IMG/VR virus record: IMGVR_UViG_3300020419_001132
DNA length: 64,000 nucleotides
Origin: a virus
Lineage: Duplodnaviria; Caudoviricetes
Direction: 5' to 3' (one strand)
Shown here: one piece after another, positions 39,189 through 61,336 of the stretch
How positions within the stretch are numbered: position 1 is the stretch's first letter
How the letters are laid out: the number at the start of each line of letters is the position of its first letter
The notes under the pieces: model-generated
Database searches by the model: none
The model's input: only the letters and a program-made list of their open reading frames with translations
Told to the model about the DNA's origin: nothing
Position numbers and translations under genes: made by a program

Positions 39189-39733
39189 AAGATATCACAC
39201 CAAAACACAACCAACACAAACAAAACAAAAACAAAATTTTTGTTAAAAAAAATAAAGTTTATAAAACTTTACGAACCGGTAAAGTATATGGACCTGATTG
39301 GTTAAAAGCCTATCGTAAAATATATGAACGTAATAAAAATTTGGTTAAAGTTTATGATGTTTTAGAAGAAGGTACAATGATATTAATGGAGAGGCTAGAC
39401 ATAATATGTACTTTAGACCAACTTTTTAGTAAAGATTCTAAACATAAAAATTTAATAACAAAAGATTTAATATGTGAAATAATTAGTGTTATAAGTAGGT
39501 CTTGGGCAATAGATTTTGAATATTCTAAAACACTTACAGGCCATGAATATTTTATACACAATGACTTAAAATTATCTAATTTAGCTTTGACTAGCGACTA
39601 TCAGATTAAATTCATAGATCCTGACTCATACGGATTTACTTTTGAATTAGATGGTGGATACACGTTTATTCAAACACATATAGAACTAATGCATAGAATA
39701 CAAAGGTATTATAATAATATAAAAGATGTATAA
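39185..39733 (+). CDS. Minimal protein-kinase-like phosphotransferase
   Basis: 182 aa; VYK, LVKVYD..ILMERL hinge, catalytic loop HNDLKLSN, and KFIDPD in place of DFG. Confidence 0.65.
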   Translation: MKDITPKHNQHKQNKNKIFVKKNKVYKTLRTGKVYGPDWLKAYRKIYERNKNLVKVYDVLEEGTMILMERLDIICTLDQLFSKDSKHKNLITKDLICEIISVISRSWAIDFEYSKTLTGHEYFIHNDLKLSNLALTSDYQIKFIDPDSYGFTFELDGGYTFIQTHIELMHRIQRYYNNIKDV

Positions 39734-40790
39734 TTACGCAGATATAAAAACAATTCATTTAGAGATTACGCAGAATTGTCAAGCGGCTTGTCCTATGTGC
39801 GATCGTAACATGAATGGTGAAGGAATAAATCCTCATATAAACTTAGATGAACTATCTCTAAAAGATTGTATGGATATCTTTCCTCCAAAATTTATTAGTC
39901 AACTTGATACTATGTATATGTGTGGAAATTTAGGAGATCCTATAATTGCAAAAGACACATTAGAAGTATTTGATTATTTTAGACAAAATAATTCTACAAT
40001 GTGGTTAAGCATGAATACAAACGCAGGAGCAAAAAATGTTGAATGGTGGAAAAAACTTGCTAAAACAATTGGAAAAAAGGGTGCCGTTATATTCTCTGTT
40101 GACGGTCTTAGTGACACTAATCATCTGTATAGGCAAAATGTTGTTTGGAACAATGTAGAACGCAACATGCGAGCATTTATTGAAGCTGGAGGTAGAGCTC
40201 GTTGGGATTTTTTAATTTTTGAACATAATCAACATCAAGTAGAAGAAGCACAAGACCTTGCAAACAAATGGGGTTGTGAAAAATTTGTTGCTAAAAAAAC
40301 AGGAAGGTTTATTACACAAGATTCACAAAAGAAAGAATCACACCAAGCAGTAAGTAAGAAAGGACAAAACACAGCTGAATTAAAAAAGCCTGATCCTAAG
40401 TACCAAAACAAGGCATTAAAAAAACAAGATATTATTATAAAAAAATATGGTAGTATGGATGCATACTATGATGTTGCTCCTATTAAACCTAAATGTGTTG
40501 ACAAGAAGGAAATTTACGTAAGTGCAGAAGGGTTAGTACTTCCTTGTTGTTGGACAGCAGGTAGGATGTATAAATGGTGGCATAAAGATCCTTATGTAGA
40601 ACAGATATGGGATTTCATAGATAAAGATAAAATTAACGCTAAGAAAGGCTTAGAACAAGTTTTCGAGACAGACATATTTACAAATATATCTAACAGTTGG
40701 AATAAATCCAGTTGTGCTGATGGAAAATTAAAAGTTTGTGCAATGAAATGCGGAGCAGAATTTGATCCATTTACTGAACAATTTAAATAA
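39726..40790 (+). CDS. Radical SAM protein with C-terminal SPASM/twitch domain (type A)
   Basis: CQAACPMC (CxxxCxxC); CGNLGDP; C-terminal YVSAEGLVLPCC...CAMKC. Confidence 0.9.
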   Translation: MYNYADIKTIHLEITQNCQAACPMCDRNMNGEGINPHINLDELSLKDCMDIFPPKFISQLDTMYMCGNLGDPIIAKDTLEVFDYFRQNNSTMWLSMNTNAGAKNVEWWKKLAKTIGKKGAVIFSVDGLSDTNHLYRQNVVWNNVERNMRAFIEAGGRARWDFLIFEHNQHQVEEAQDLANKWGCEKFVAKKTGRFITQDSQKKESHQAVSKKGQNTAELKKPDPKYQNKALKKQDIIIKKYGSMDAYYDVAPIKPKCVDKKEIYVSAEGLVLPCCWTAGRMYKWWHKDPYVEQIWDFIDKDKINAKKGLEQVFETDIFTNISNSWNKSSCADGKLKVCAMKCGAEFDPFTEQFK

Positions 40791-40791
40791 G

Positions 40792-40808
40792 ATAAGTACG
40801 TATATAAA
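40792..40808 (+). promoter_or_regulatory. 17-bp intergenic motif ATAAGTACGTATATAAA (late-promoter-like)
   Basis: Fills almost the whole intergenic spacer and is identical to 31960-31976. Confidence 0.5.
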
Positions 40809-41864
40809 ATGAATATAGATAGTATACGTAAAATAGAGCTAGAGATTACAAGCGATTGTAATGCGGCATGTCCAGGTTGTGCTAGGACACAACATATAGA
40901 TAAACTTGAAATTAAGAGTTTCATGTTATCTGATCTGCTTAGATTATTTCCAGACACAAAACATATTAAAGATAAGCAGTTTAAGTTTTGTGGTGTACTA
41001 GGAGATCCTGCACTTAATAAAGATGCTGTTAGTATGACAGAACATCTTACAGATCATGGCGGGTATTGCCAATGGAGTACTAACGGCGCATATCAAACTT
41101 CTGATTGGTGGCATGCATTAGGCGAGATAAGTGCTAATACTAACCTTGTTGATGTAAATTTTTGTGTAGATGGACATAAGGAAACTAATCATATCTATAG
41201 GGTAAACACAAACTGGAAAGTATTAGAACGCAACATGCAAGCCTATAGTGACGCAGGTGGAAAAGCAACTTGGATTTTTATTGTTTTTGATCATAATGAA
41301 TTTGAATTGGAAACAGCTAGAGAACATGCAAATAAATTAGGATTTACGTTTGCAACTCGTACTGGAATGAGAAACAGTTATGACGACTGGGTTTCTCAAA
41401 TAGGAAAGAAAAATGAAAAACAAAAGAAAGTCATTACTACTACTGGAAAGAAAGAACATAGTAAAAAAGATCAGGTATTGGAACTAGACAAGTTTCTTGC
41501 TAACGAAAATAAAACAAATAAAGAAACAAAAGAAATACTTACAACAATAAAATGTAAACTTGTACACGAAGGTGAAATTTTTATTAGTTCTAAACAAGAA
41601 ATGTGGCCTTGTTGTTTTTTATGGGATAGTGCATTTAAAAATAAAGAAAATATTTTAAATAAACTTAGTGAATACCAAACTGGTTGGAACAGTCTTAAAA
41701 CTAACAGCATTGATACTGTTTTACAACATCCATGGTTTGACAAAATATTAGGACAAAGCTGGAACCCTAATCACGAGAAACATCTACCAAGATGTATAAA
41801 AACATGTGCTTATCATAAAGCATATCACAATGAGATAAACATAGATGTCACAAGCAATTTGTAA
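40809..41864 (+). CDS. Radical SAM protein with C-terminal twitch domain (type A)
   Basis: CNAACPGC; CGVLGDP; FISSKQEMWPCC...CIKTC. Confidence 0.9.
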   Translation: MNIDSIRKIELEITSDCNAACPGCARTQHIDKLEIKSFMLSDLLRLFPDTKHIKDKQFKFCGVLGDPALNKDAVSMTEHLTDHGGYCQWSTNGAYQTSDWWHALGEISANTNLVDVNFCVDGHKETNHIYRVNTNWKVLERNMQAYSDAGGKATWIFIVFDHNEFELETAREHANKLGFTFATRTGMRNSYDDWVSQIGKKNEKQKKVITTTGKKEHSKKDQVLELDKFLANENKTNKETKEILTTIKCKLVHEGEIFISSKQEMWPCCFLWDSAFKNKENILNKLSEYQTGWNSLKTNSIDTVLQHPWFDKILGQSWNPNHEKHLPRCIKTCAYHKAYHNEINIDVTSNL

Positions 41865-43041
41865 ATTACAGTCAACAGGAATAACAATTGATGGTGCTGA
41901 AGGTCGTGTGAAGCCATGTTGTCATTTTGATTCAAATAAAACTTTTAATATTCCTGACGTAAGTGACATAGAAAATTTTGAGCAAGTGTTAGATAGCAAA
42001 CTTTCAAAACGTATAAAAAAGTTAACAAAAAAAGGAATTTTATTTCAAAAGGAGACAGAGATAATACCTCAGTGTAATACTTGTTGGGATAGAGAGAGAA
42101 ATAAATTACAATCACGTCGTAATTGGTATAACACAAAATTAACCGGAACTGGTGCTACGGTAGAAAATTTGCAAATAGCATTAGATTATACTTGTAATCT
42201 CATGTGTAGAATTTGTGCTCCTAAGCATAGTAGTAAATGGAATAGTGCCAAAGATGTAATAAAAAAATTAAGAACAATTTATCCCGAACATCCAGTTTAT
42301 GAAGCAAATCCTATAAAACAAAATTATTCTGAGAATATAAAAAGAGTCATACAAAATAGTGATTTAACTAATTTAAAAACAATAGAACTGATAGGCGGTG
42401 AACCTTTTTACAGTAAGCATTTTAATTGGTTTATAGAAACTATATGTGAGAAATGTAATCCAGAAAATATTGAATTTTCTACAATTACCAATGGGACTAT
42501 TATACCTCCTAAAGATATATTAGATAAATTACTTAGGTTTAAATGTGTAAACATAAAATTAAGTATTGACGGGTTGGGTCCTTTAGCTGAAAGCACGAGA
42601 CACGGAGTTGATTGGAATACAATAGATAAAAATATTCACACGTGGGCCAAATTGCATAACAAAGCTAATACAAGACAGATAGAAGTCAGAGCCAATCCTA
42701 CAGTAAGTATTCTTAATGTGAATAAATTACAAGAAATTATTGATTATTTTGATGACTGGAAAAATATTACAGTTGCTCCACATGGCTTGGAAGGACCTAG
42801 TTGGTTGTGTTTAGAGCAAATTCCTATTAAAATAAGAAAAAAATGGGTACCAACTTATCGGCATCCGTATCAAAATCATCAATTTAAAAACATTGTACTA
42901 AATGATAGAGTGGTGGAAAATAAATTACAACGGTTTTTAGAAAGCACATTAGTTTTAGATAATCATTACGGCATGGCTTTCAAAGATTGTAATCCAGAAA
43001 TGTACGAAACTATAGAAAGGCTTGTCAATGTGGAACAGTGA
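41845..43041 (+). CDS. Radical SAM protein with N-terminal twitch domain (type B)
   Basis: N-terminal C...GRVKPCC...CNTC; CNLMCRIC..HSSKW; GGEP. Confidence 0.88.
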   Translation: MSQAICKLQSTGITIDGAEGRVKPCCHFDSNKTFNIPDVSDIENFEQVLDSKLSKRIKKLTKKGILFQKETEIIPQCNTCWDRERNKLQSRRNWYNTKLTGTGATVENLQIALDYTCNLMCRICAPKHSSKWNSAKDVIKKLRTIYPEHPVYEANPIKQNYSENIKRVIQNSDLTNLKTIELIGGEPFYSKHFNWFIETICEKCNPENIEFSTITNGTIIPPKDILDKLLRFKCVNIKLSIDGLGPLAESTRHGVDWNTIDKNIHTWAKLHNKANTRQIEVRANPTVSILNVNKLQEIIDYFDDWKNITVAPHGLEGPSWLCLEQIPIKIRKKWVPTYRHPYQNHQFKNIVLNDRVVENKLQRFLESTLVLDNHYGMAFKDCNPEMYETIERLVNVEQ

Positions 43042-43969
43042 TACACTAGAATGGATTGACATTGAACTTACAAGTTTTTGTAATATAAGTTGTAAAGGTT
43101 GTTTTAGGGTAATATCTAAGGAAGCAGATAAAATTCTTAACAAAACATACCTTGATTTGAATGTAATTAAAGAAAAATTTAAAAAAGAAATGTTTCCTAA
43201 TATAAAAATTATTAATTTTTGTGGAAGTGTAGACGAACCTACAACTCATCCTCAGTTTTTTGAAATAATAAAGCACTTTGCAACATGGGATTGTCATATC
43301 AATGTTGCAACAAATGGTAGTTTAAGAACTGCTAGTTGGTGGACTAAACTTGCAGAGATAATGCCTGAAAGCCATGTTGTAACTTGGGGCATAGATGGTA
43401 GTGATGAAACTAGCGAGTTATACAGACAAGGGTCTAATTTTAAAAAAGTACAGCAAAATTTTAGGGCGTTTATAGCCGCCGGAGGCAGAGCTCATTGGCA
43501 ATTTATTGTATTTGAACACAACGAGCACCAATTAGAAATTGCAAAGAAAATGGCAGTAAATGAAGGCTTTAAGGAGTTCAAAACAATCATTAGTCATAGA
43601 AAAGACATAGGTGGAGTGAAACATAAAAAGCTCGAAGTAGAAGAATCTCCTACAATAAGTTGTAAGTATGGTAATCAAAAGCGTATATTTGTAAATCATA
43701 TGGGAAATGTAATTCCTTGTTGTCACCTTAACAGCAAAATGTTAGAATTTTCAGTTAACGATAAACAAAAAGATAGATTTGAACAAATATTAGTTGAAAA
43801 CAACTATATGTCTGATATTAATCTTAAAAATGTTTCATTAGATGATGCTATACATGGTAAAGTTTGGACAGATATACAAAAAAGTTGGAATTCAAACAAT
43901 AGAATACCAAGATGTGAAAGTGTTTGCAAACAAAACATGCGAGATAAATTTATAAAAGAAAAGTTATAG
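43028..43969 (+). CDS. Radical SAM protein with C-terminal twitch domain (type A)
   Basis: CNISCKGC; CGSVDEP; FVNHMGNVIPCC...CESVC; ATG at 43028. Confidence 0.9.
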   Translation: MWNSDTLEWIDIELTSFCNISCKGCFRVISKEADKILNKTYLDLNVIKEKFKKEMFPNIKIINFCGSVDEPTTHPQFFEIIKHFATWDCHINVATNGSLRTASWWTKLAEIMPESHVVTWGIDGSDETSELYRQGSNFKKVQQNFRAFIAAGGRAHWQFIVFEHNEHQLEIAKKMAVNEGFKEFKTIISHRKDIGGVKHKKLEVEESPTISCKYGNQKRIFVNHMGNVIPCCHLNSKMLEFSVNDKQKDRFEQILVENNYMSDINLKNVSLDDAIHGKVWTDIQKSWNSNNRIPRCESVCKQNMRDKFIKEKL

Positions 43970-44608
43970 TATAGTATAGGTTACTTTTTTATCATATCGT
44001 TCTACATACCGTAGTATATCATTACTTTCATCTTTTAAAACAACATTACTGTGGAAGTTTGTATTTGGATAACCTATTCCTAACATTGTTATAATATTTG
44101 AGTCAAGAGTATACCCTATACTTTTAAGATAATTTTTAAGTAATTCGGTGTTATAACAACAACAAAATCCTGTTCTCATGCCCAGCTGATTTGCGGCTAG
44201 TGCAACAGCACCAGAGCTAATACCTGCAGATAAAGTAGCATTAAAATTGTGTACATGGTGTTGTTGCTGTATACTATCCTTTTTTTCATGGCCAGCATAT
44301 TTAAAATTATCTCCTGTGTATTCATTTTTTAAATATATGAAAAGTAAAGGACTATCAACTTGAGAGTTTCTGTCCTTAGTACCCTTGTTTTCTTCGTCAA
44401 TAGAACATTTATATATATTTTTGTTGTAAACAGGATTATCAGAAACCAATAGATGATAATACGCTTGATTTTGCTTTGTAGGAAGATCTATAGCTATATT
44501 GATCAAGGTATACTTTACAAGTTGGGATATTTTTTTATTTCTATCCCAATTACGTTGACATTGATTTGCAGTTTTACTAGCACTTACTAGTAATTTTCTA
44601 ACACCCAT
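43964..44608 (-). CDS. Nitroreductase-family flavoprotein
   Basis: 214 aa; CQRNWD, PTKQNQ, SAGISSGAVALAANQLGMRTGFCCC, LGIGYP. Confidence 0.75.
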   Translation of the reverse strand: MGVRKLLVSASKTANQCQRNWDRNKKISQLVKYTLINIAIDLPTKQNQAYYHLLVSDNPVYNKNIYKCSIDEENKGTKDRNSQVDSPLLFIYLKNEYTGDNFKYAGHEKKDSIQQQHHVHNFNATLSAGISSGAVALAANQLGMRTGFCCCYNTELLKNYLKSIGYTLDSNIITMLGIGYPNTNFHSNVVLKDESNDILRYVERYDKKVTYTIL

Positions 44609-44653
44609 GTGAAACCCTGTTTTTCAGCTTAAATAAATCCATACTAAGTTTAA

Positions 44654-44668
44654 TATAAATATATTTAT
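44654..44668. promoter_or_regulatory. Back-to-back late-promoter motifs in the 14-bp palindrome ATAAATATATTTAT
   Basis: Plus strand TATAAATA at 44654-44661 (exact T4 late consensus); minus strand ATAAATA at 44668-44662; lies between divergent genes. Confidence 0.6.
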
Positions 44669-44691
44669 GTTCATTAAAGTAGTAGTTAACT

Positions 44692-46098
44692 ATGCATAGA
44701 AAACCTCCTTCAGAAACGTTTTGCTTGTTACCATGGGTGCATTTAAGCACTAGACCAGATGGAAGTATGCGAGTATGCTGTACTGCAAACGCAAGTTCAG
44801 TAGGAGCTACTAATGACCGAGAACACGGTGGGCAAGTGGGTATTTTAAAAACAGAAGATGGTAAACCAAACAATTTAAATGTAAGTGACTTCGAAACTGC
44901 TTGGAATAGCACATATATGAAAAATGTACGTAAGCAGATGCTTAACGGAGAAAAACCGCCTAGCTGTTTGAAATGTTATAAAGAAGAAGCGGCCGGCCAC
45001 AAAAGTAAGCGTATGTGGGAAACACATTACTGGGGACAGCGTGTTGATTTAGATAAAATACTAGCTGACACCAAAGAGGATGGGTCTGTTCCTCCACAAC
45101 TAGCATACATAGATTTACGTTTTGGTACCAAATGTCAGTTAGCTTGTGTTATGTGTTCTCCACATGACAGTTCTGGTTGGATTAAGGATTGGAAAGCTGT
45201 TTTTCCTGCTGTAGAAAATGCTAGTCTGAAAGAAACTATGCAATGGAAAGACAAGGGTAGTTTTAACGGAAGTAGCTATAACTGGCACAAACAAAATCCT
45301 ACATTTTGGAAACAGTTTTATGAGCAGATGCCAAGTATGCAACAGATATATTTTGCAGGCGGCGAAAGTTTAATTATTGAGGAGCATTATGAAATACTTG
45401 AACATGCTATTAAAATGGGATATGCTAAAAATTTAGAGTTACGATATAATTCAAATGGTGTTGAATGGCGTGACGATTTGTTTGACCTTTGGAAGCATTT
45501 TAAATTAGTGCGTTTTCACTATAGTGTAGATAGCATAAAACAAATGAATGATTACATACGTTATCCTAGTGAGTGGAAACGGCAAGAAGAAGTTTTCCAT
45601 ATTTTAGATAATGAAACAAGTGATAATGTTGAAGTAACTATAGCTTGTGCAGTACAGGCTTTAAACATTTATTACATTCCAGATTTTATAAAATGGAAAC
45701 TTGAAAAGAAATTTAGAAAAATAAACATGTGGCCGTTTGCCGCAGGAGCAATAAATTATCATTTTGTTTATCATCCGCCACATCTTAATGTAAAGATATT
45801 ACCTACATGGTTTAAAAAAGAATGTAGATTAAAGTATGAAAGATTTTATCCATGGTGGGAAGAAAATTGGGAGTTAGGTGTACCTAGTTGGCATAAAGGT
45901 AAAGTAACATATGAAGAATGGCGTAGTGCAGAATACGGCATTAAGAGACTAAAAGGTATGCTTAAATTTATGGAAAGTGAAGATTGGAGTAGGCGTCTAC
46001 CTGAGATGAAGGAATTTCTACAACTTTGTGATAAGCAAAGAGGCATAACTTTCGAAAAAACTTTTCCTGAAATGCGGGGCATATTTAATGATTTCTAA
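44692..46098 (+). CDS. Radical SAM protein with N-terminal twitch domain (type B)
   Basis: FCLLPWVHLSTRPDGSMRVCC...CLKC; CQLACVMC..DSSGW; AGGES. Confidence 0.92.
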   Translation: MHRKPPSETFCLLPWVHLSTRPDGSMRVCCTANASSVGATNDREHGGQVGILKTEDGKPNNLNVSDFETAWNSTYMKNVRKQMLNGEKPPSCLKCYKEEAAGHKSKRMWETHYWGQRVDLDKILADTKEDGSVPPQLAYIDLRFGTKCQLACVMCSPHDSSGWIKDWKAVFPAVENASLKETMQWKDKGSFNGSSYNWHKQNPTFWKQFYEQMPSMQQIYFAGGESLIIEEHYEILEHAIKMGYAKNLELRYNSNGVEWRDDLFDLWKHFKLVRFHYSVDSIKQMNDYIRYPSEWKRQEEVFHILDNETSDNVEVTIACAVQALNIYYIPDFIKWKLEKKFRKINMWPFAAGAINYHFVYHPPHLNVKILPTWFKKECRLKYERFYPWWEENWELGVPSWHKGKVTYEEWRSAEYGIKRLKGMLKFMESEDWSRRLPEMKEFLQLCDKQRGITFEKTFPEMRGIFNDF

Positions 46099-47326
46099 TA
46101 CAATGTGCCCTTATCCTTACATGCATCAGTTAATTAGTTCCTCAGGAACTGTTACACCTTGCTGTCATGTTTATGAACCTCCTGGTACTCCTTGGAAAAA
46201 AGTAAATTTTAGAGATGGCATAACAACTGACTTACATAAGTTAATGCGTAAGCAAATGGAAAGTGGTAAATGGCCTGGTATTTGTGTAAAATGCAAAGAT
46301 CAAGAACTTAGGGGAGATATTAGTCATAGACAACTTGCCCTTGAACAATTTGGGAATACACACGATATTAAAATAAAATCACTTGACGTGGCATATACTA
46401 ATAAATGTAATTTAGCATGTAGAATGTGTAAACCTTCAGATAGTAGTTTGCTAGACGAACTTTATATAAAAGCAAAAGAAGATGGCATAAATGAGATTCC
46501 TAGTTGGATTAAGATTTTTGGACATTCACCTACTTATGAATACGAAGCCATAGAAAAGGTTAAGTACACGAAGAAACTTATTGCAGAAGGATTAACTAAT
46601 TTAAAAGTAACTGGCGGAGAACCTACAGCGTGTAAACATTTTATGGGACTAGTTGAATGGATATTACAAAAGGGCCACGCAAAGAATATAGCTATACAAA
46701 TTACAACAAATGGTACAAAACTTAATAAAGTGTTAATTAAAAAATTACTACAGTTTAAACAAGTAAAGTTAGTATTAAGTATAGACGGCACTGGAAATGT
46801 ATACAACTATGTTAGACATCACGGTTCTTGGGATAAAACATATAGTAACTTACAGGAATTATCAAAGCATCCTAGTATAACAGTAAGTGTAGCATGTATT
46901 GCTTCTTTTTTTAACACTACTAATATAATAGATTTAATATACCAATGTGCAGAACTTGGCATTGCAGTTCATGTTGATCAAGATCTTAAACCAAGAAATT
47001 CAGAAATAACACCGTACAATCACGATAGTAATATTTCAAGTATCCTATTAGACCAAGCGACCCAATTAAGAAAAGATTTTAAAAGTTGGAAATCGTATAG
47101 TGGTGAAGACACAAAAATGCCGGTTGGATTTAATAAAATTATTTGGTATGCAAATAAGTCAGCAAAAACACTTGAAAATATTGCTAATACTCCACGTCCT
47201 AAAGGACATATTAGAGATCGATTACAACAGACAATAAAAATACAAGACAAGTTATATAATACCAACTTTGAAGATTTTCTGCAACCTGAACAAATAAGAT
47301 ACCTAGGTGGTAACTATGCCCAGTGA
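46088..47326 (+). CDS. Radical SAM protein with N-terminal twitch domain (type B)
   Basis: CPYPYMH..SGTVTPCC...CVKC; CNLACRMC..DSS; TGGEP. Confidence 0.9.
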   Translation: MISNTMCPYPYMHQLISSSGTVTPCCHVYEPPGTPWKKVNFRDGITTDLHKLMRKQMESGKWPGICVKCKDQELRGDISHRQLALEQFGNTHDIKIKSLDVAYTNKCNLACRMCKPSDSSLLDELYIKAKEDGINEIPSWIKIFGHSPTYEYEAIEKVKYTKKLIAEGLTNLKVTGGEPTACKHFMGLVEWILQKGHAKNIAIQITTNGTKLNKVLIKKLLQFKQVKLVLSIDGTGNVYNYVRHHGSWDKTYSNLQELSKHPSITVSVACIASFFNTTNIIDLIYQCAELGIAVHVDQDLKPRNSEITPYNHDSNISSILLDQATQLRKDFKSWKSYSGEDTKMPVGFNKIIWYANKSAKTLENIANTPRPKGHIRDRLQQTIKIQDKLYNTNFEDFLQPEQIRYLGGNYAQ

Positions 47327-52087: not shown

Positions 52088-52090
52088 GTA
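52083..52090 (+). promoter_or_regulatory. Late-promoter-like TATAAGTA abutting a start codon
   Basis: One mismatch from TATAAATA; overlaps the stop at 52087 and the ATG at 52090. Confidence 0.3.
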
Positions 52091-53202: not shown

Positions 53203-53206
53203 CAAG

Positions 53207-53213
53207 TTAAATA
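53207..53213 (+). promoter_or_regulatory. Late-promoter-like TTAAATA
   Basis: Intergenic, 5 nt before the ATG at 53219; same variant as 5963. Confidence 0.3.
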
Positions 53214-53218
53214 TTAAT

Positions 53219-53977: not shown

Positions 53978-55476
53978 GAACTATCTCAAGTGTATATCAC
54001 GACTGGGTACCATACCCGGTTGGTTGCCTAATCTCTCACTGTCTAAAAAATCCTAAAATAAAAAAAGAATACAAATTTCTTGAACCTTTATATAAGAATA
54101 AATGGGATAATCAAGAAACCCACGATAAATTAAAACAAGCAGATATATTAGGTTTAACCTGTTATGTTTGGAATCAAAATGCAAATGATGAAATAGCTCA
54201 AATATTTAAACAGTACAATCCTGCAGGTATTGTTGTGTACGGAGGACCTAACGTACCAGAAGAAAATTTACAAGAATTTAAACGTAACTATGTAGATCAT
54301 TACATGACAGGCCCTGGAGAATTACAATGGGAAAAATTATTAGATCCTGCTAGTGATAGCGAATATGCAATACCAACTCCTTACACTGACGGAATATTTG
54401 ATAATATTTTAAAACACGAAGATGATATTGCTGTTGCATTTGAAACAAACAGAGGATGTCCATATCACTGTGCATTTTGTGATTGGGGAGGAGTCAGTCG
54501 TAGTAAAATTACAAAACTTAAAGATGCCGCAGTAAAAGAAACTATAGAACACGTATTAAGTTTTGACAAAGTAAAACGTTTAGAAATACTAGATGCAAAC
54601 TATGGTATATTTCCAAGAGATGTGGATTTTGTACAGCATATAGTCGATAATAAAAAACGTGATGATATGTTATTAACCTTTGCAGGATTTGCTAAAAATG
54701 GATCGCCATACCTTCCTGATATAATGAATTTAACAATGGATAATTTTAACGACAAGTTAAGGAATGTAAAAATAAGTTTGCAGACATTAACGCCTGATGT
54801 GTTAGATACAATACAAAGAAAAAATATTTCTACAGATAAATTACTCCGTATCATGGATCAGTTGAGAGATATAAAAGTAAATTCAGAACTTATAATAGGC
54901 TTGCCTGGAGAAACAGCAAGTAGTTGGGCTGATACTTTGTTCAAACATCCTGAGTTAGGAATAGATTTTGCTAGAGCATACCCGTTATACGTATTGCCTA
55001 ATACGCCTATGGCTACACAAGATTATAGAACTAAACACAAAATAAAAACTAAAAAAATTAATTTGCCTAATAAAGAAACGTTTGAAATGATATATGAGTG
55101 TAGTAGTTATGATTTAGATGAAATTACACAAATATATTTAAACTGGTGGTACTTTAACACTTTTTATAATTTTGGTATAGATAAAACTATTACAAAAGAT
55201 ACTATGAATGACTTTTTTGCAAATTTAAAAGATACGCCTTTTATGAGTTGTTGTGTAGAAGAAGTAAGAAATATATTACACAGAATATTCAAACCAGAGG
55301 ACGAAATGTTGTTAGAAGGATATGATTATAACTTTTTACATAAACAGCTAGGCAGAGGAAAAGAATTGTTATACATGAAGAAACACAACAAGACAGTACA
55401 ACAAGAACTAGGAATAAAGTTTGACATAAAAAATGATGATAAAGAACTAGGGAGCGCCTTTGCGTATATAAAATGA
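53956..55476 (+). CDS. Cobalamin-binding-domain radical SAM protein (class B methylase-like)
   Basis: 506 aa; N-terminal DILGLTCYVWN and VVYGGP; ETNRGCPYHCAFCDW; DANYG; ELIIGLPGET; YPLYVLPNTPM. Confidence 0.85.
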   Translation: MSRTVLLGTISSVYHDWVPYPVGCLISHCLKNPKIKKEYKFLEPLYKNKWDNQETHDKLKQADILGLTCYVWNQNANDEIAQIFKQYNPAGIVVYGGPNVPEENLQEFKRNYVDHYMTGPGELQWEKLLDPASDSEYAIPTPYTDGIFDNILKHEDDIAVAFETNRGCPYHCAFCDWGGVSRSKITKLKDAAVKETIEHVLSFDKVKRLEILDANYGIFPRDVDFVQHIVDNKKRDDMLLTFAGFAKNGSPYLPDIMNLTMDNFNDKLRNVKISLQTLTPDVLDTIQRKNISTDKLLRIMDQLRDIKVNSELIIGLPGETASSWADTLFKHPELGIDFARAYPLYVLPNTPMATQDYRTKHKIKTKKINLPNKETFEMIYECSSYDLDEITQIYLNWWYFNTFYNFGIDKTITKDTMNDFFANLKDTPFMSCCVEEVRNILHRIFKPEDEMLLEGYDYNFLHKQLGRGKELLYMKKHNKTVQQELGIKFDIKNDDKELGSAFAYIK

Positions 55477-56138
55477 AAGACGTAATTTTTACACCATTAG
55501 CAATTCCACCAATACCAGAAAAACAAAAAGTATTAGATAGATTTAATGCTCCAGATTTTTATGTTTGGTGGGACGAAGAAACACTATTAGGAGAAAAAGA
55601 AAATAACAATCCATTAGGACATCCTCAACAATGGACAGATAATGCAAGAAATAACTATCCAGAACTTATAGATTGGGTTGAAACTTACATTCCTTGCGAC
55701 GAATGGTATTACATACGTATAGCAAGAGCTAAGGAAGAGATACCTCCACACGTAGATGGCAACTCTGTAAATCCTACACATAAGCACCATCTTGCAATAC
55801 TTCCAGAAGCACTAGAATATAATATGAAACACGAGCCAATAGGATATAGATTTGTTATAGCAGGTAGCAAAGACAAAATGTACATGTGTAAAGAACATGA
55901 TTACTCTAAAGATATGACATGGCAGGAAAAACATATGTGTATTGTCCCTGAAGATACAGATGCATTTGTTATTAGAAACCAAGACCAAGCACATGGTGTT
56001 GAAGCTGATACAGATGATCGATTAATAGGTTTTATACTAGGAAAAGTAAATGCCAAAAAACATTGGGACCTAATAGAAAAGAGTGTAAGTACATACAGCG
56101 ATAAAGTGATAAGGAAACAAGATGTATTCAATGCATGA
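55473..56138 (+). CDS. Fe(II)/2OG-oxygenase/cupin-like protein
   Basis: IRIARAKEEIPPHVD (HxD)...QAHGVE...RLIGF. Confidence 0.55.
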   Translation: MKDVIFTPLAIPPIPEKQKVLDRFNAPDFYVWWDEETLLGEKENNNPLGHPQQWTDNARNNYPELIDWVETYIPCDEWYYIRIARAKEEIPPHVDGNSVNPTHKHHLAILPEALEYNMKHEPIGYRFVIAGSKDKMYMCKEHDYSKDMTWQEKHMCIVPEDTDAFVIRNQDQAHGVEADTDDRLIGFILGKVNAKKHWDLIEKSVSTYSDKVIRKQDVFNA

Positions 56139-56706
56139 TGGTATGGACACAAGCATACATTTAGAAGTAGCTGAAAGGCTTAATCCTAGCACCTGTGTAG
56201 AAGTAGGCACTTATTACGGAGGTATAACTTACAAACTATGTAAAGCATTACCCCATTGTCATTTTTTTGCAGTCCAGGCATACCACGATCATAAACTTAA
56301 TCACATGCCGGATACAATAAGAGGAGAATACAGCCAAGGAGTAGCTGATAAGACAAAAAGCATTAATCTAGATCCTAGCTTGAAAAACCAAGATTGGAAA
56401 AGAGCAGTAGCACAAAATTTTCCTCCTGAATATCATGATTATTTTGATTTTAATTTATTAGTAAAAACATTCCAAGATTGTAACAATGTAAGCATAATAT
56501 TAGATACAAGTCCATTTAAATGGCAGTTTCCTGAAGTAGATTTAACTATTTTTGATTTATCTCCATTACTAGAAGAGAATATAAAACAGTATGAATTTTG
56601 GAAAAATAAAAGTAAAAATATTTTAGTAGGAGCATATAATCATCAACAAGAGTTTATTGATTATGCAGGCGGAGCAAAAATGAGAAAGGATTATGTATTG
56701 GTATGA
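56122..56706 (+). CDS. Class I SAM-dependent methyltransferase-like protein
   Basis: VEVGTYYGG motif I; AAGGA SD 6 nt upstream. Confidence 0.6.
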   Translation: MYSMHDGMDTSIHLEVAERLNPSTCVEVGTYYGGITYKLCKALPHCHFFAVQAYHDHKLNHMPDTIRGEYSQGVADKTKSINLDPSLKNQDWKRAVAQNFPPEYHDYFDFNLLVKTFQDCNNVSIILDTSPFKWQFPEVDLTIFDLSPLLEENIKQYEFWKNKSKNILVGAYNHQQEFIDYAGGAKMRKDYVLV

Positions 56707-57416
56707 CAAAGAATTATCACGAAGCAGTTGGCTTTTATCAAACATATGAATTAAATGTAGATTTTGTTGAAAGAGTAAGAGAAGAGATTACACCTTTTTT
56801 TGAAAATTATGTTGTTGATGATGTAGCACAAGGAGGATGGGGTAGCGGTTATGTGCCTTTTGAAGATTGCGGTCCTTGGACACACAAGTTTATAGATTTG
56901 TTTAAAGGCAACTTTTTAAGTAATATAAGATTAAGTGCTTTCAGTCCAACAAATAGTTATGATTGGCATATTGGTATAGAGAAAGAAAACAATAAATGGA
57001 AACAGGGTGGTGAGAACGAAGAACCGGAAATTTATCCTTATCAAGTTAAATGTAGCACACTAAATGTTTTTTGTAGTCCTTCTATAGGTGATAGAACATT
57101 GTTTGCAACCGATATGGATATGCCTCCTTATAGAGGATATTATATTGGATATGGCACCAAAAAGAAGATGCTTGTAATAGATGAAATGGTTGTAGATAGA
57201 AATCCTGTTATTTTAAATACAGGGCTATGGCATAAAATAGATGCAAGTGGAGAAAGAAACATGGCTAGTTTTCTGTTTACTCCTTATCTTAGTTTTGCAG
57301 GATTAGTAGCATATTGTAGAGAAGTAGGATTATTGATCGAAAGGACTAATCCTATTATACCTTATTACGAAGAAGATTGGGAAGACAAGTATATGCAAGG
57401 AAGAAAATTTGACTAA
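56703..57416 (+). CDS. Fe(II)/2OG-oxygenase/cupin-like protein
   Basis: IRLSAF..YDWHIG...PVILNTGLWHKID..RNMASF. Confidence 0.5.
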   Translation: MTKNYHEAVGFYQTYELNVDFVERVREEITPFFENYVVDDVAQGGWGSGYVPFEDCGPWTHKFIDLFKGNFLSNIRLSAFSPTNSYDWHIGIEKENNKWKQGGENEEPEIYPYQVKCSTLNVFCSPSIGDRTLFATDMDMPPYRGYYIGYGTKKKMLVIDEMVVDRNPVILNTGLWHKIDASGERNMASFLFTPYLSFAGLVAYCREVGLLIERTNPIIPYYEEDWEDKYMQGRKFD

Positions 57417-57999
57417 TTGTGCATATAATTTAAATATTGATGTTACTGATCTTAGAAAAGAATTATTAGAGTATCAAAAGACACTTTCTTATACTAAAGA
57501 AGATTGGGGTAGCTTATTTGTAGAAAGAGAAAAATTAGGAAAACATACAGAAAATTTTTATAAAATACTTCCTAATTGTTTTTTAAGTAAAATAAGATTT
57601 ATAGATTATACACAATTTGACGAAGAAAATCCCCATTTATATCATATAGATGTTGATGTAGCTAATCAAGGTTATTATGATGGTGAGATACATCACATGC
57701 AGATTAGACAAGCATCAATTAACATTTTACTTTCAGGCAATGAGAATATAGAAACATTATTTGCTGTAGATCTTGAAAGTGAATATAGTGACAAGCTACA
57801 TTATTTCAAAGAAAGAAATATGAAAGTTGTCGATAGAAAAAAAGCTACTAAGTTTCCAATGCTTATTAATACAGGAATGTGGCATAAGTCAGATCCAATT
57901 GATAACACAAGAAAGCTAGCCAGTTTTATATTTCATCCTTTTGTATCATTTATTGAAGCAAGAGAAAGGTGCAAACATAAAGGAGTATTAATAGAATGA
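57409..57999 (+). CDS. Fe(II)/2OG-oxygenase/cupin-like protein
   Basis: IRFID..LYHID (HxD)...PMLINTGMWHKSD..RKLASF; paralog of the upstream gene. Confidence 0.55.
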   Translation: MTNCAYNLNIDVTDLRKELLEYQKTLSYTKEDWGSLFVEREKLGKHTENFYKILPNCFLSKIRFIDYTQFDEENPHLYHIDVDVANQGYYDGEIHHMQIRQASINILLSGNENIETLFAVDLESEYSDKLHYFKERNMKVVDRKKATKFPMLINTGMWHKSDPIDNTRKLASFIFHPFVSFIEARERCKHKGVLIE

Positions 58000-58607
58000 A
58001 AAAGAATCAATTACCTAGTATACATAATTTAAATTTAGATATAGATCTAAAAACATTGCAAAATGAATGTGATAAACTTGCAGAAAAATTTGTTGATGTA
58101 AAAACTGCAAATCCAATGTTGTGTGATAATCATATGGAATTGGTTGCAGATGTATATGATAATTTTGAACAAATAAATCTAACAACTCCGAGCGAAATAC
58201 TGCCTTATACTGCTAGTATAAAAGAAAGACTAAAACGTAAGGAAGAACACTTATACAATATTCCTACAGAAGATTACACAGGAAGTTATTTTGAAAAAAT
58301 TGTTACACAACTTAAAGCACCTGCAAGTAGAATACGTATAACAAAATTAGCACCAGGAAAAAATATTCCGTTTCATGTTGATTATGATGTCAGTTATGCT
58401 GTAAGATGTATAGTTCCAATTTACGGAGATAAGCAAGTAATTAATTTATTCAAGCGTGACGGAAAGTTAGAAGCCTATAATCTAGATAGTGGAAATGCAT
58501 ATTTTTTAAATATCGGATATCCACATGCTGTTATTAACATGAGTACAAAACCAAGAATTGCACTTATGTTTAGTTTAAATGGTACTGAAGATCTAGAATC
58601 AATATGA
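57996..58607 (+). CDS. Aspartyl/asparaginyl beta-hydroxylase-like Fe(II)/2OG oxygenase
   Basis: RIRITKLAPGKNIPFHVD...YFLNIGYPHAVIN..PRIALMF. Confidence 0.75.
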   Translation: MKKNQLPSIHNLNLDIDLKTLQNECDKLAEKFVDVKTANPMLCDNHMELVADVYDNFEQINLTTPSEILPYTASIKERLKRKEEHLYNIPTEDYTGSYFEKIVTQLKAPASRIRITKLAPGKNIPFHVDYDVSYAVRCIVPIYGDKQVINLFKRDGKLEAYNLDSGNAYFLNIGYPHAVINMSTKPRIALMFSLNGTEDLESI

Positions 58608-59149
58608 TTATATTTCCAGATAGGATTTTTATTCTTATTCCTAAGTGTGGCTGTAACAGTATTATGAGTATGTATGGTGTAAATCCTTGGGCAAAACATA
58701 GACAACATATTGAAAATAAAGAGGAAGCAGTTTTATATTTAAAAGGAGATTATCCCCATATGCCTGTTAGTCAGATTCCAGAAAGATTTTCTTATCTGCC
58801 TACAGAAGCGATAGTCAGAAACCCTTGGCATAGAACTGTAAGTAGATATTTTTATCTACAAAAAATGAACGACTTCGAAATGAGTTTTGAAGAATTTGTA
58901 AAAAGTAAGTATATACATCCTATGTACAAACAAGATCCTGATTATGCCAAATGGGGTAGTGTAAGTTGGACACAACAGATTGAATGGATTGACGATAATA
59001 CAAAGGTACATAAATTTGAAGAGTATGATTTTACGTTACATGAAAATAAATCACATAGTCGAGATTTTGAAAGTATGTATAATAACGAGTTATATAAAAT
59101 AGTAGGAGATTATTACATAAAAGATGTAGAAAGGTTTAATTATGTATAA
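58604..59149 (+). CDS. Sulfotransferase (Sulfotransfer_2-like)
   Basis: FILIPKCGCNSI (5'-PSB) and VRNPWHRTVSRY (3'-PB). Confidence 0.75.
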   Translation: MIIFPDRIFILIPKCGCNSIMSMYGVNPWAKHRQHIENKEEAVLYLKGDYPHMPVSQIPERFSYLPTEAIVRNPWHRTVSRYFYLQKMNDFEMSFEEFVKSKYIHPMYKQDPDYAKWGSVSWTQQIEWIDDNTKVHKFEEYDFTLHENKSHSRDFESMYNNELYKIVGDYYIKDVERFNYV

Positions 59150-59729
59150 AAGTTGTTATGAAGTAGATGTTAAATTGCCAGATGATTATGTAGATAAGGC
59201 ATTAAAAGCATTTCACGAAAGATTGCCGGAGGCTTATACAGATAGAGCACCTGATGCCCATATAGATGAGTATCCCGAATTGTTTGAAATATTTGGAGAT
59301 ATGAAAGGTTGGTTTGCACCAAAGGTTAGATTGCTTAACCACACTCCTAACGAACTAGGGACAACGGCACCACACTTTGATGTCAATGAGCATTGGCAAT
59401 ATGAAGATATGGATAGATTTATTAAAATTGAAGCAAGTTTGAATGTTCCATTATTTGCCCCAGAAGGCGTTGTTACACGTTGGTATCAACAAAAGAATCC
59501 AGATGTTATACACCCATATGACTTTTGGGAAGGTAAAAAATATGAAATGCGAACAGTAGATGAATTTGAAATTACAAATAAGCCTGTATTGTTTAGAACA
59601 GGTATTTGGCATGCTGTAGAAAAATCAGACAGCAAACGCACTATGCTAAGTTTCAGTGCAAGATATGGTATCGATTGGGATACTTTTGTAAATTGTTGGA
59701 GAGACAGCGGATTACTTATTGAGCGTTAG
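59142..59729 (+). CDS. Fe(II)/2OG-oxygenase/cupin-like protein
   Basis: APHFD (HxD)...SLNVPL...PVLFRTGIWHAVE..RTMLSF. Confidence 0.6.
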   Translation: MYKSCYEVDVKLPDDYVDKALKAFHERLPEAYTDRAPDAHIDEYPELFEIFGDMKGWFAPKVRLLNHTPNELGTTAPHFDVNEHWQYEDMDRFIKIEASLNVPLFAPEGVVTRWYQQKNPDVIHPYDFWEGKKYEMRTVDEFEITNKPVLFRTGIWHAVEKSDSKRTMLSFSARYGIDWDTFVNCWRDSGLLIER

Positions 59730-60276
59730 ACTCGCCCTTCCAGCGTAAAAATGGTTCTTCACTTGCAAAAGGCCAACCACTAATATTTAATCTATCACCA
59801 GTACAGTTATCTACTTCATGTAGTATGTCTACATGCATACATACAAGCCTATTTCGTTTAGGTAATATGCTTATACCATCGACACGTAAAGCACCATCAG
59901 TTTCGTCTGTCAGGTATAACATGTATGTCCAATCACCGTATATTTTATGATCCTCTATATGTGGAGCACAGAAACTTCTTTCTGGTTCAAACTTTTTTGC
60001 AAACAGTTGCAGGGGATTAAGTTTTTCTGTTGGAAGATCTAAACCTATTACATTGCCTATTTTTTTCAACAAAGGATAACGCAAGTCACTTCGCCTAAGT
60101 TCTGTGCGTAGCATATACCAATCATAGTCTGTTTTTTCTTCCATTACATGATTACAGTCTTCATTGTTTAATGAAATAGTTTCAGCTCCGGTAACTAACT
60201 TTGTAAGATCTGTAATTAATTCTTCTTCTAAAAAATTATCACAAATTATTAATGTATCAAACTCAGTTCTTAGCAT
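59716..60276 (-). CDS. Prolyl-4-hydroxylase-like Fe(II)/2OG oxygenase
   Basis: FCAPHIED...MLYLTDETDGAL...PKRNRLV...LHEVD...RLNISGW. Confidence 0.7.
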   Translation of the reverse strand: MLRTEFDTLIICDNFLEEELITDLTKLVTGAETISLNNEDCNHVMEEKTDYDWYMLRTELRRSDLRYPLLKKIGNVIGLDLPTEKLNPLQLFAKKFEPERSFCAPHIEDHKIYGDWTYMLYLTDETDGALRVDGISILPKRNRLVCMHVDILHEVDNCTGDRLNISGWPFASEEPFLRWKGESNAQ

Positions 60277-61336
60277 AATTTAATTCCTTTGTATTCCAAT
60301 TTTTTCCATATCCACTACTGTATTCAAATTTTTGCCCACATGTCCTTCCACATGTATATATTCTTTTATATTTGTCATCAGGATTATTCCAGGATCTTTC
60401 TAAATAAGTTTGGAAAAATTCGTTTTGTAAAACATTCCAACCATATTTTCTCATATCATTAAAATCTTCGCCATACAAGTCTAAAAAATATTTAAAACTT
60501 TCCCATTGTTTAGTATGCCTTTTGTCGGCAAAATATTTAGGACCACCAAACCAACAGCATGGCCATAGGCGCATATCCATATCAATAAATAATCTAAAAT
60601 CTTTTTTAAACTTACAAGTGATATCTGTATTTGCAACATAATCATCAAAGTTTTTGTATTGAGAAAGTACAGAAGAAAAGTCTTGTGTTACGTGACTGTC
60701 TTTATTTTTTACCGTATTGCCTTTTCTAGTTTTAACTTGCGTTTTTGTATCTTGAAATCTAGCAGTATATTTTACAGTAAAATTGGTAAATCCTAATTTA
60801 CTTGCTAATTTTTCTGCATCATCTATTTGATGATAATTATGTGCAAACTCTATAAATTGCCATTCTGCTTTCCCACCAGCTTTTATATAAGCAGTTGCAT
60901 TTTCAATAATTTTTTCGAAATTACTTCCTATTCTATACAAATGATTAGTATCTTTTAATCCGTCTATTGAAAATACTACAGATAGTTTTTCTTTGCCGTT
61001 ATTAGCTAAGTCAGTCCACCACTTAGGTTTCCTAGCACTACCATTTGTTTCTATTCTCATTGTTCTTGTAAAATCTAAACTGTATAAAAAAGTTTCTTCA
61101 AAGGTCGGACTTGCTATTATATCTCCAAAGTTTCCACAATGAATAATTTGGTCTAATTTATTATTTGTAAAAGGTTCTAATATAATTTTATAATCTTGTA
61201 AAGTTAAATCAGTGATTGGCATACCTGGATTTACTTTTTGATCTTTACTTACCCTGCCACATTGTGGACACATTAAATTACATCTGCTTGTATGATCAAG
61301 CATTAATTTTTTAATGTATGAAGTATTAGTAAACAT
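60263..61336 (-). CDS. Radical SAM protein with C-terminal twitch domain (type A)
   Basis: CNLMCPQC; CGNFGD; FIDMDMRLWPCC...CGRTC; likely start at 61336 (TAATG overlap). Confidence 0.9.
   Translation of the reverse strand: MFTNTSYIKKLMLDHTSRCNLMCPQCGRVSKDQKVNPGMPITDLTLQDYKIILEPFTNNKLDQIIHCGNFGDIIASPTFEETFLYSLDFTRTMRIETNGSARKPKWWTDLANNGKEKLSVVFSIDGLKDTNHLYRIGSNFEKIIENATAYIKAGGKAEWQFIEFAHNYHQIDDAEKLASKLGFTNFTVKYTARFQDTKTQVKTRKGNTVKNKDSHVTQDFSSVLSQYKNFDDYVANTDITCKFKKDFRLFIDMDMRLWPCCWFGGPKYFADKRHTKQWESFKYFLDLYGEDFNDMRKYGWNVLQNEFFQTYLERSWNNPDDKYKRIYTCGRTCGQKFEYSSGYGKNWNTKELNYAKN

Follow-up and report, generated by a model that had tools for sequence, protein, structure and literature searches.

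A large complement of radical S-adenosylmethionine (SAM) genes has been described in a marine phage before. Nishimura et al. (2017; PMC5332604) reported TARA_ERS488813_N000010, a 183-kilobase (kb) T4-like marine viral genome that carries 12 radical SAM (rSAM) genes together with iron-sulfur (Fe-S) assembly genes. In that work the rSAM genes were counted only, and their architectures, core set, bacterial counterpart and function were not given. For jumbo cyanophages such as S-SSM6a, Iyer et al. (2021; PMC7824862) reported polymorphic gene clusters for the modification of sugars and amino acids, with polysaccharide decoration or a secondary metabolite as the predicted role. A third point of reference is the NCBIfam family N_Twi_rSAM (NF033640), for which a literature search found no paper naming the family. 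Here, we describe an island with twelve rSAM genes in a 64,000-nucleotide stretch of viral DNA (Duplodnaviria; Caudoviricetes; IMG/VR record IMGVR_UViG_3300020419_001132), termed the window in its full length.

The likeness of the window to TARA_ERS488813_N000010 is drawn from the published description alone. Both belong to marine myophages with twelve rSAM genes, and a heavy Fe-S investment was noted there as well, while the size and T4-like character of that genome set it apart (PMC5332604). The initial annotation of the window spoke of a large Fe-S and SAM investment for a virus; the twelve genes agree with this, but such a complement in a marine phage had already been published (PMC5332604). 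Like the island, the S-SSM6a-type clusters are phage-encoded and polymorphic, and contain carbamoyltransferases, iron/2-oxoglutarate (Fe/2OG) and cupin hydroxylases, methyltransferases and glycosyltransferases. However, no radical SAM genes are mentioned in them, whereas the island is dominated by rSAM genes and sits in a different phage lineage (PMC7824862). Among phage tailoring islands it represents a new variant in which rSAM genes dominate, with a defined core and a bacterial counterpart. Gene neighbourhoods suggest that it tailors a sugar, nucleotide-sugar or glycan by a modular pathway, a proposal that we give about an even chance. That it makes or decorates an unusual sugar-based surface structure is held with about half confidence.

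The twelve rSAM genes stand out clearly in the window. Exactly 12 open reading frames (ORFs) of at least 80 amino acids (aa) contain the motif CX3CX2C, each of them once, and all are rSAM genes. Compared to this, residue shuffles of the 45 ORFs of at least 150 aa yield 0.12 ORFs with the motif on average, and 2 at most. All-against-all BLASTP divides the proteins into four types (A to D), with 19–32% identity within a type and marginal similarity between types. These results bear out the twelve paralogs in four architectures first annotated at these coordinates, with starts agreeing within a few codons, as well as the observation that paralogs have diverged within each type yet keep the ligands of the SAM cluster. 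Ten of the twelve proteins score above the gathering cut-off of PF04055 Radical_SAM (29.5 bits), at 30.6–57.1 bits; A1 (24.0 bits) and A4 (26.3 bits) fall below it, though their homology to A2 and A3 is clear. The GGE motif shows no variation in types B and C, and the ligand cysteines show little or none. From these motifs, all twelve are predicted to be functional radical SAM enzymes. The genes of the main run overlap and lie on one strand, and A4 lies on a convergent arm, where ATG at 61336 is a likelier start than TTG at 61372. The coordinates of these genes and of other features of the window are listed in the table.

Table. Features of the window, in order of position, with the evidence for each
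Feature	Coordinates	Strand	Evidence or remark
Giant ORF, 5260 aa	10046-25828	+	Between baseplate wedge gene and tail-fibre-like genes
Two overlapping paralogs of ~272 aa	33344-34973	+	DxD-like motifs (DTD, DVD), by eye
GT2-like tandem domain pair, DGD motif	35881-37470	+	Glycos_transf_2 PF00535, 18.9 bits against 23.3, E 0.0015, sub-threshold
Methyltransferase-like protein	37454-38293	+	28-32% identical to Bdellovibrionota island genes
A1, rSAM with C-terminal twitch-like Cys domain	39726-40790	+	CX3CX2C at residue 18; core
A2, rSAM with C-terminal twitch-like domain	40809-41864	+	CX3CX2C at residue 17
B1, N_Twi_rSAM	41845-43041	+	NF033640, 202.6 bits; variable member
A3, rSAM with C-terminal twitch-like domain	43022-43969 (alternative start 43028)	+	CX3CX2C at residue 20
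Nitroreductase-like flavoprotein	43964-44608	-	Atlas feature search: viral clusters with PF00881, score 0.93-0.94
B2, N_Twi_rSAM	44692-46098	+	NF033640, 422.6 bits, best family-model match; core
B3, N_Twi_rSAM	46088-47326	+	NF033640, 220.4 bits; variable member
B4, N_Twi_rSAM, charged linker and QueC-like PP-loop domain, 843 aa	47307-49838 (alternative start 47316)	+	NF033640, 203.6 bits
C1, type C rSAM, Cys-rich C-terminal half	49828-51003	+	CX3CX2C at residue 24
B5, N_Twi_rSAM	50996-52087	+	NF033640, 229.1 bits; variable member
C2, type C rSAM	52090-53202	+	Most conserved core member
D1, rSAM with N-terminal B12-binding-like region	53956-55476	+	PF04055, 41.9 bits
Asp/Arg-hydroxylase-like cupin	57996-58607	+	PF05118, 25.9 bits, at or above cut-off
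Sulfotransfer_2-like	58604-59149	+	PF03567, 22.7 bits, at or above cut-off
ORF without family match	59142-59729	+	Pfam scan
2OG-FeII_Oxy_3	59716-60276	-	PF13640, 31.6 bits, at or above cut-off
A4, rSAM with C-terminal twitch-like domain	60263-61372	-	CX3CX2C at residue 31; convergent arm

The types differ in the position and spacing of additional cysteines. Type A proteins end in the pattern C-x16-18-CC-x54-67-C-x3-C, and in type B proteins the pattern C-x16-18-C(C)-x39-61-CxxC precedes the SAM-cluster motif. Type C proteins share the motif VxWxxGRxCNYxCSYC and have a conserved C-terminal Cys domain of their own (GWxC...C...C-x4-C), which brings the types with an auxiliary-cluster domain to three out of four. 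The Cys patterns first given for types A, B and C hold in general but fail for B4, which has a lone Cys (VCP) at the position where the remaining type B proteins have PCC. From the conserved Cys patterns, the auxiliary domains of types A and B are predicted to be of the twitch type, which would bind one auxiliary [4Fe-4S] cluster where a SPASM domain binds two. In a scan with SPASM PF13186 (cut-off 21.5 bits), B2 scores above the cut-off (23.1) and A3 (21.0), B5 (20.7) and B1 (18.7) just below it; no other rSAM protein has a match.

All five type B proteins exceed the whole-protein cut-off of NF033640 (170 bits), at 202.6–422.6 bits, and each spans about positions 1–396 of the model. They match the family end to end, and the N-terminal C...C(C)...CxxC domain precedes CX3CX2C in the same way. 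Types A, C and D score 25–50 bits and are non-members. The initial annotation had named this family; it is real, and the five proteins belong to it. Compared to the family as defined, what is new here is that a single phage island holds five copies, that B2 has conserved partners in C2 and A1, and that one copy is fused to a PP-loop domain.

It had also been proposed that the twitch domain is moved to the N-terminus in these five proteins, and profile comparison agrees. HHalign of the last 115 residues of type A against the part of type B that precedes CX3CX2C gives 95.2% probability (E 2.6e-8) over 87 columns, and registers the first Cys on the first Cys, the G-x-PCC hairpin on the hairpin, and the final Cys pair on the final Cys pair. 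By this alignment, the C-terminal domain of type A and the N-terminal domain of type B are homologous, and the rSAM core has them at opposite ends. For the C-terminal domain of type C, HHalign detected no homology to the domains of type A or type B. The positions that never vary in a set of 111 diverse type B sequences are C29, C92, C95, the SAM-cluster triad, GGE, N255, S278 and R290; C11 and C30 are nearly invariant.

Structure models place the island proteins among several kinds of rSAM enzymes. The AlphaFold2 model of B2 has a predicted local distance difference test (pLDDT) score of 93.3 and a predicted template modelling (TM) score of 0.92, and its N-terminal domain consists of a beta-hairpin followed by helices, at high confidence except for one loop. 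Only core residues 131–430 align with solved structures, with CteB (Z 11.8), anSME (11.7), BlsE (11.7) and viperin (11.5) as neighbours, and Foldseek against the PDB gives TM scores by query of at most 0.34. Full-length structural matches are solely to uncharacterised AlphaFold DB clusters (TM 0.77). The C2 model (pLDDT 84.3) has BlsE, viperin, anSME and MoaA as its nearest PDB folds, at TM ~0.46–0.48. A3 matches the sequence of GDGT-MAS (7tol) in the PDB with E 6e-8, in the rSAM core only.

The sugar-acting enzymes BtrN, BlsE (7vob) and DesII (8hzy) resemble the island enzymes in combining an rSAM core with one auxiliary-cluster domain, and BlsE is the top Foldseek match of C2 and joint top for B2. 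The ligand spacing of BtrN, C-x18-C-x43-CxxC, is akin to that of type B. However, the auxiliary domain of these enzymes is C-terminal, and they are only 13–16% identical to the island proteins, with TM of at most 0.48. The peptide and protein modifiers anSME (4k36), CteB (5wgg) and SkfB (6efn) are joint best neighbours of the rSAM core (Z 11–11.8). A different view of the island starts here: it would carry out post-translational modification of proteins or peptides, acting either on the phage's own tail-fibre or giant virion proteins or on a ribosomally made precursor peptide that has escaped recognition. Cross-links, epimerisations or oxidations of the formylglycine type would then be the work of the rSAM enzymes, and hydroxylation of side chains that of the Fe/2OG enzymes. 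We regard this as less likely than a sugar substrate, but as a serious alternative. The nearest solved folds, which include the modifiers CteB, SkfB, SuiB and anSME, speak for it, as do the many secondary NCBIfam matches to maturases of ribosomally synthesised peptides that are modified post-translationally (RiPPs); yet every match to a RiPP-maturase model is far under its cut-off, and so are the island scores against the NCBIfam models of anSME, CteB and SkfB. In contrast to those systems, no RiPP recognition element (RRE) domain, precursor peptide or sulfatase target was found in the island. Moreover, types A and C open with the rSAM core, and the N-terminus of type B is occupied by the Fe-S domain.

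Characterised families outside peptide modification are also distant. The best island scores against NCBIfam models are 46.5 bits for MoaA (cut-off 284), 41.9 bits for viperin_w_prok (cut-off 180), 19.7 bits for QueE of the Clostridial type (cut-off 260) and 64 bits for the W-cofactor maturase (cut-off 380). Grouping of the paralogs with characterised host enzymes such as MoaA or QueE was looked for and not seen, because no protein comes near any such cut-off. A defence viperin was considered and rejected: PADLOC viperin-like scores are weak (up to 43.6 bits) and reflect the shared rSAM core. D1 scores 155.5 bits against the KedN5 family (NF033712, cut-off 700), and its match to B12-binding PF02310 (19.1 bits, E 0.0012) is under the cut-off of 32.1. 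The description of type D as B12-binding therefore stands as a class resemblance only, with a sub-threshold match to PF02310 and a place outside the KedN5 family. D1 resembles the cobalamin-dependent (class B) rSAM methyltransferases, with putative B12 binding, but is not a KedN5-family member.

The presence of BlsE and DesII among the structural neighbours, and the weak viperin-like scores (pVip, 43.6 bits), raise another possibility, namely that the product is no surface structure but a diffusible small molecule with its action within or outside the infected cell, for example an antibiotic of the nucleoside or aminoglycoside kind, a cofactor, a modified DNA nucleotide or a counter-defence compound. 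This appears improbable, and the wide margins by which the viperin, MoaA and QueE cut-offs are missed speak against it. For the cyanophage tailoring clusters, a secondary metabolite is nonetheless among the interpretations put forward (Iyer et al. 2021, PMC7824862), and the mixture of twitch rSAM, B12-rSAM, carbamoyltransferase, sulfotransferase, PP-loop, thioesterase and nitroreductase functions in the islands resembles secondary-metabolite clusters. On the other side, we saw in the window neither a biosynthetic scaffold gene (polyketide synthase, nonribosomal peptide synthetase or cyclitol synthase) nor a gene for export or resistance.

B4 differs from the other type B proteins in its length and in its C-terminal domain. 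An N_Twi_rSAM part (about residues 1–450) is followed by a charged linker and a PP-loop domain (about residues 603–843). The fusion is real because independent full-length homologues exist, at 74% and 46% identity, and in the L001 and L005 phage islands the PP-loop domain is a separate gene. The B4 translation contains an SGGADS motif and a TRSCEGD...CGICYWCKERKW motif, the latter a conserved SC...CGxCxWCxER motif, and both are kept in homologues. The cysteine motif is presumably like the zinc site of QueC. In its SGGxDS PP-loop motif and SC...CGxCxxCxxR-type Cys motif the domain resembles QueC and Cap9. In contrast to these, it is fused to an rSAM enzyme and is very diverged from canonical QueC. 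QueC-type matches are weak and cover the PP-loop motif only (PHROG 1550, E 1e-6; PADLOC QueC, E 0.003), and no Pfam (PF06508) or NCBIfam QueC match was found for the domain at E ≤ 0.05–0.1. A match to Cap9 among PDB sequences (E 0.66) was set aside as non-significant. The fusion may couple ATP-dependent activation of a carboxylate to rSAM chemistry. This QueC-like domain is a further point in favour of a small-molecule product.

The distribution of the genes in related phages separates a core from a variable complement. The comparison covers 80 IMG/VR contigs around C2 orthologues, kept of 145 confirmed relatives, with six further contigs found via B2, and rSAM genes were counted within a 21-kb frame. 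These loci hold 1–12 rSAM genes each, with a median of 7, and they belong to the same four types. C2 is found in 80 of the 80 viral loci at ~83% identity (range 78–99%) and B2 in 44 of 80 at ~80%, while A1, A3 and C1 are each found in about 20 of 80. The A1 orthologues in phage contigs are 64–72% identical, and all three phage loci inspected for gene order (L001, L005 and L087) again show A1, B2, C2. A conserved core is formed by A1, B2 and C2 together with the GT2-like and methyltransferase-like genes that precede them. The variable complement, which differs among related phages, consists of B1, B3, B4, B5, A2–A4, C1 and D1. At 50% identity or more, no orthologue of B1 or B3 was found in the 86 loci, compared to one of B4, two of B5, five of A4 and eleven of A2; D1 has two close orthologues, with homologues in 21 of 80 loci.

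Type B sequences are very diverse. A set of 300 type B ORFs falls into 128 clusters at 60% identity, and a profile search at E ≤ 1e-30 returns 7924 representatives of 50%-identity clusters, many of them tandem double-domain proteins of ~800 aa. B2 has more than 4000 homologues, the best of which are 80–87% identical and come from Tara and other marine assemblies.

This strong difference in gene content between related phages, along with accessory genes that occur sporadically, would also be expected if the twelve were independent accessory genes with unrelated roles, gathered in a hypervariable region. That explanation is very improbable. It is opposed by the order of A1, B2 and C2 in three phage loci and the adjacency of B2 and C2 in bacteria, by fusions of N_Twi to N_Twi and of N_Twi to PP-loop domains, and by the overlapping, same-strand arrangement of the genes. 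It had been proposed instead that all twelve paralogs have diversified their specificity within one pathway, and the core, the fast turnover of the complement and the fusions would fit such a pathway.

The orthologues are under purifying selection, judging from pairwise ratios of nonsynonymous to synonymous substitution rates (dN/dS). Against the window genes these ratios are 0.06–0.25 (A1 0.11, A2 0.20, A3 0.08, B2 0.06, C2 0.07, A4 0.25), and they are rough because dS is near saturation. The motif CX3CX2C is kept in 596 of 596 complete homologues of related loci. An apparent loss of the motif in 26 ORFs was rejected, as all 26 are cut off at a locus edge. Relaxed selection and loss of ligands, which would have spoken against the first interpretation of the paralogs, were therefore looked for and not seen. 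The auxiliary cysteines are also retained: those of A2 in 11 of 11 orthologues; C214, C233, C234, C298 and C302 of A3 in 22 of 22; and C180, C184, C263, C264, C293, C315, C353, C358, C360 and C363 of C1 in 21 of 21. In C2, C309, C331, C352 and C357 are conserved. The exceptions are the first Cys of A1 (kept in 0 of 24 orthologues) and the second Cys of the A4 doublet (0 of 5).

The same core is found on the chromosomes of Bdellovibrionota, which are predatory bacteria. A scan of species-representative genomes with B2 as the query returned one mis-binned phage contig and six contigs of Bdellovibrionales metagenome-assembled genomes (MAGs), of 43–58% GC, with B2 at 53–60% identity. Where these six contigs are long enough, they also carry C2 (62–65%), A1 (42–47%) and a homologue of the methyltransferase-like gene. 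Overall, B2 is 53–63% identical to its Bdellovibrionota orthologues. C2 orthologues of 57–68% identity turn up in 16 of the 301 Bdellovibrionota genomes that were sampled, including one that consists of a single 2.91-Mb contig. One bacterial island is chromosomal because it adjoins rpoD, dnaG, yqeY and tadA. B2 and C2 are directly adjacent in five of five Bdellovibrionota genomes examined, and this adjacency holds in bacteria of 39–58% GC. The N_Twi family had been described as mostly from uncultured marine or aquifer sources, which understates its range: five Bdellovibrionota genomes carry 8–13 N_Twi genes each (counted at E ≤ 1e-30), and three further Bdellovibrionota MAGs have at least 12 each above the cut-off. 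In a tree of C2, the Bdellovibrionota form one clade whose placement among the phage sequences is not resolved, with saturated outgroups, so the tree gives no direction of transfer. Two Bdellovibrionales rSAM islands (G002:C15, ~171–203 kb; G003:C80, ~36–70 kb) are larger than the phage island, at 30–40 kb, and hold ~10 N_Twi genes as well as Asp/Arg-hydroxylase, nitroreductase and carbamoyltransferase genes.

The neighbours of the core in bacteria are informative about its possible function. Between the GT2-like and methyltransferase-like genes on one side and the rSAM genes on the other, the single-contig 2.91-Mb genome carries four GT2 genes, two of them clear and two weak, along with a GT-C membrane transferase of the PMT_2/ArnT type and a flavin amine oxidoreductase. 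Homologues of GT2 genes adjoin N_Twi genes in two further bacterial genomes. The tight linkage to GT2-like and GT-C transferases in bacteria indicates transfer onto an acceptor, which argues against a small molecule. The core also occurs on these chromosomes beside glycosyltransferases and without phage structural genes, which counts against protein or peptide modification.

The GT2-like gene of the window is closely associated with the rSAM core. Its DGD motif is invariant in both halves of the protein and in bacterial homologues, and the protein is 38–42% identical to two single-domain genes in the island of the 2.91-Mb genome. Members of its family lie directly beside C2 or B2 in three genomes (G155, G055 and G276). 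PF13641 or PF00535 is present in 3 of its 120 listed homologues, and a profile of the family against the PDB found no relative.

For the sugar-based function proposed above, a sequence of steps can be outlined from established rSAM chemistry. Each enzyme would reductively cleave SAM at its CX3CX2C cluster, and the resulting 5′-deoxyadenosyl radical would abstract hydrogen from the substrate. The auxiliary cluster would accept an electron or hold the substrate, and dehydrogenation, epimerisation, decarboxylation or cross-linking is therefore the likely outcome. D1 may add methyl groups to unactivated carbon, and the PP-loop domain of B4 may activate a carboxylate with ATP. The A1-B2-C2 trio would build an unusual sugar, which the variable paralogs and the Fe/2OG enzymes, sulfotransferases and carbamoyltransferases would diversify, and glycosyltransferases would transfer it to an acceptor at the surface of the virion or of the infected cell.

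A broader proposal, possible but doubtful, is that N_Twi_rSAM and its type A and C partners represent a very large class of enzymes that functionalise the C-H bonds of sugars. With arrays of them, jumbo phages and Bdellovibrionota would equip their virions or cell surfaces with glycans that are tailored by radical chemistry and differ from strain to strain. A new core sugar would come from the trio, and a variable glycan "barcode" of importance in adsorption or the exclusion of other phages from the paralog arrays. The rSAM enzymes are costly and oxygen-sensitive, and a dozen of them in a surface-ocean phage are under strong purifying selection, so their function probably matters for infection. 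The permuted-twitch family is huge (~7900 clusters) and has no known reaction, so that learning what it does could give access to new radical chemistry. A surface glycan, if that is the product, would bear on host range, superinfection exclusion and the arms race in abundant marine phages. The conserved three-enzyme core and its GT2-like partner, which are also present in a complete bacterial genome, provide a tractable entry point.

Several points weigh against a sugar-based function. The glycosyltransferase call for the GT2-like gene rests on sub-threshold Pfam matches. Sugar-related accessory genes are sporadic, with CTP_transf_3 at one locus and the carbamoyltransferase at six distinct loci. 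The structural neighbours do not discriminate, as BlsE, viperin, anSME and CteB are tied, and near-saturated dS makes dN/dS only a rough guide. The remaining points also count in favour of protein or peptide modification. Most characterised SPASM/twitch enzymes act on peptides or proteins, and the Asp/Arg-hydroxylase and prolyl-4-hydroxylase-like 2OG oxygenases, families represented in the island by Asp_Arg_Hydrox and 2OG-FeII_Oxy_3, often target proteins. The island starts directly after the tail-fibre genes and the 5260-aa ORF, presumably a giant virion protein, which are possible substrates themselves, and an M16/PqqF-like peptidase borders one bacterial island. A peptide substrate is opposed by the small ORFs: no small-ORF family is conserved across the loci, the best being found in 16 of 82 sources, with examples 6–10 kb from C2, although hypervariable or distant precursors could escape this comparison. 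No PqqD/RRE family was found in Pfam scans or precomputed Pfam listings of island proteins.

The accessory genes around the rSAM run give a varied picture. The methyltransferase-like protein has no Pfam or NCBIfam match, and an Atlas search yields a weak lead to class I methyltransferases. The nitroreductase-like flavoprotein has no direct Pfam match either; its homologues occur in 30 of 80 viral loci, and PF00881 genes are also found within a bacterial island and in the phage island L100. That phage island also contains CTP_transf_3, a cytidylyltransferase of the cytidine monophosphate (CMP)-sugar type, and an AsnB-like amidotransferase gene. NodU/TobZ-type carbamoyltransferases are present in four bacterial islands (L088–L091) and two phage islands. 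The carbamoyltransferases, the cytidylyltransferase and AsnB-like genes of L100, and the Sulfotransfer_2-like and GT2-like genes of the window count in favour of a sugar or glycan substrate. The two overlapping paralogs upstream of the GT2-like gene have no Pfam match and one weak NCBIfam match (Npun_R2821/R2822 family, E 9e-4), and are possibly candidate GT-A glycosyltransferases. For most of the non-rSAM island genes, the Pfam and NCBIfam scans returned nothing.

The window is part of a marine jumbo myophage of the Atu_ph07/RaK2-like kind, ~350 kb in size. Contigs akin to it are as long as 330–354 kb, and its GC content is ~32%. Its 1189-aa baseplate wedge protein shares 37% identity with the counterpart in Agrobacterium phage Atu_ph07; phages of the Rak2 group are also among the matches, and PHROG tail and baseplate matches back this placement. 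On the 5′ side of the island lie genes for a gp25-like protein, a baseplate hub and the baseplate wedge protein, followed by the 5260-aa ORF and three tail-fibre-like genes. A comparison of the island with 50,697 phage records by Megablast returned no matches, and tblastn of B2 detects only ~20% identity, in Vibrio and Ralstonia jumbo phages. In the nearest record, G001 (49 kb), there is no N_Twi gene. In one MAG (L087/G005, labelled Crocinitomicaceae) the baseplate wedge protein is 67% identical to that of the window and B2 84%; these phage-like contigs are probably mis-binned viral sequence inside a bacterial MAG.

Sigma-70 and terminator scans of the window gave results at or below chance. 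The T4 late-promoter consensus, TATAAATA, is strongly depleted, with 2 copies in the window compared to 15.4 expected. One copy of TATAAATA, at 44654-44661, is located 30 nucleotides upstream of the B2 start codon, in the sole sizeable gap within the rSAM run. Expression timing was considered from this motif, and two copies were judged too few to call it.

Finally, three small ORFs on the + strand (56703-57999 and 59142-59729) share, by eye, the motif N/R-T-G-x-W-H-K/A near their C-termini and look like a paralogous series. No family match was found for them, for 55473-56138 or for 61336-61983. The ORF at 61968-62645 (- strand), also without a family match, is sulfotransferase-like and carries the motif SPRSGSTW, which resembles the loop that binds 3′-phosphoadenosine-5′-phosphosulfate (PAPS).

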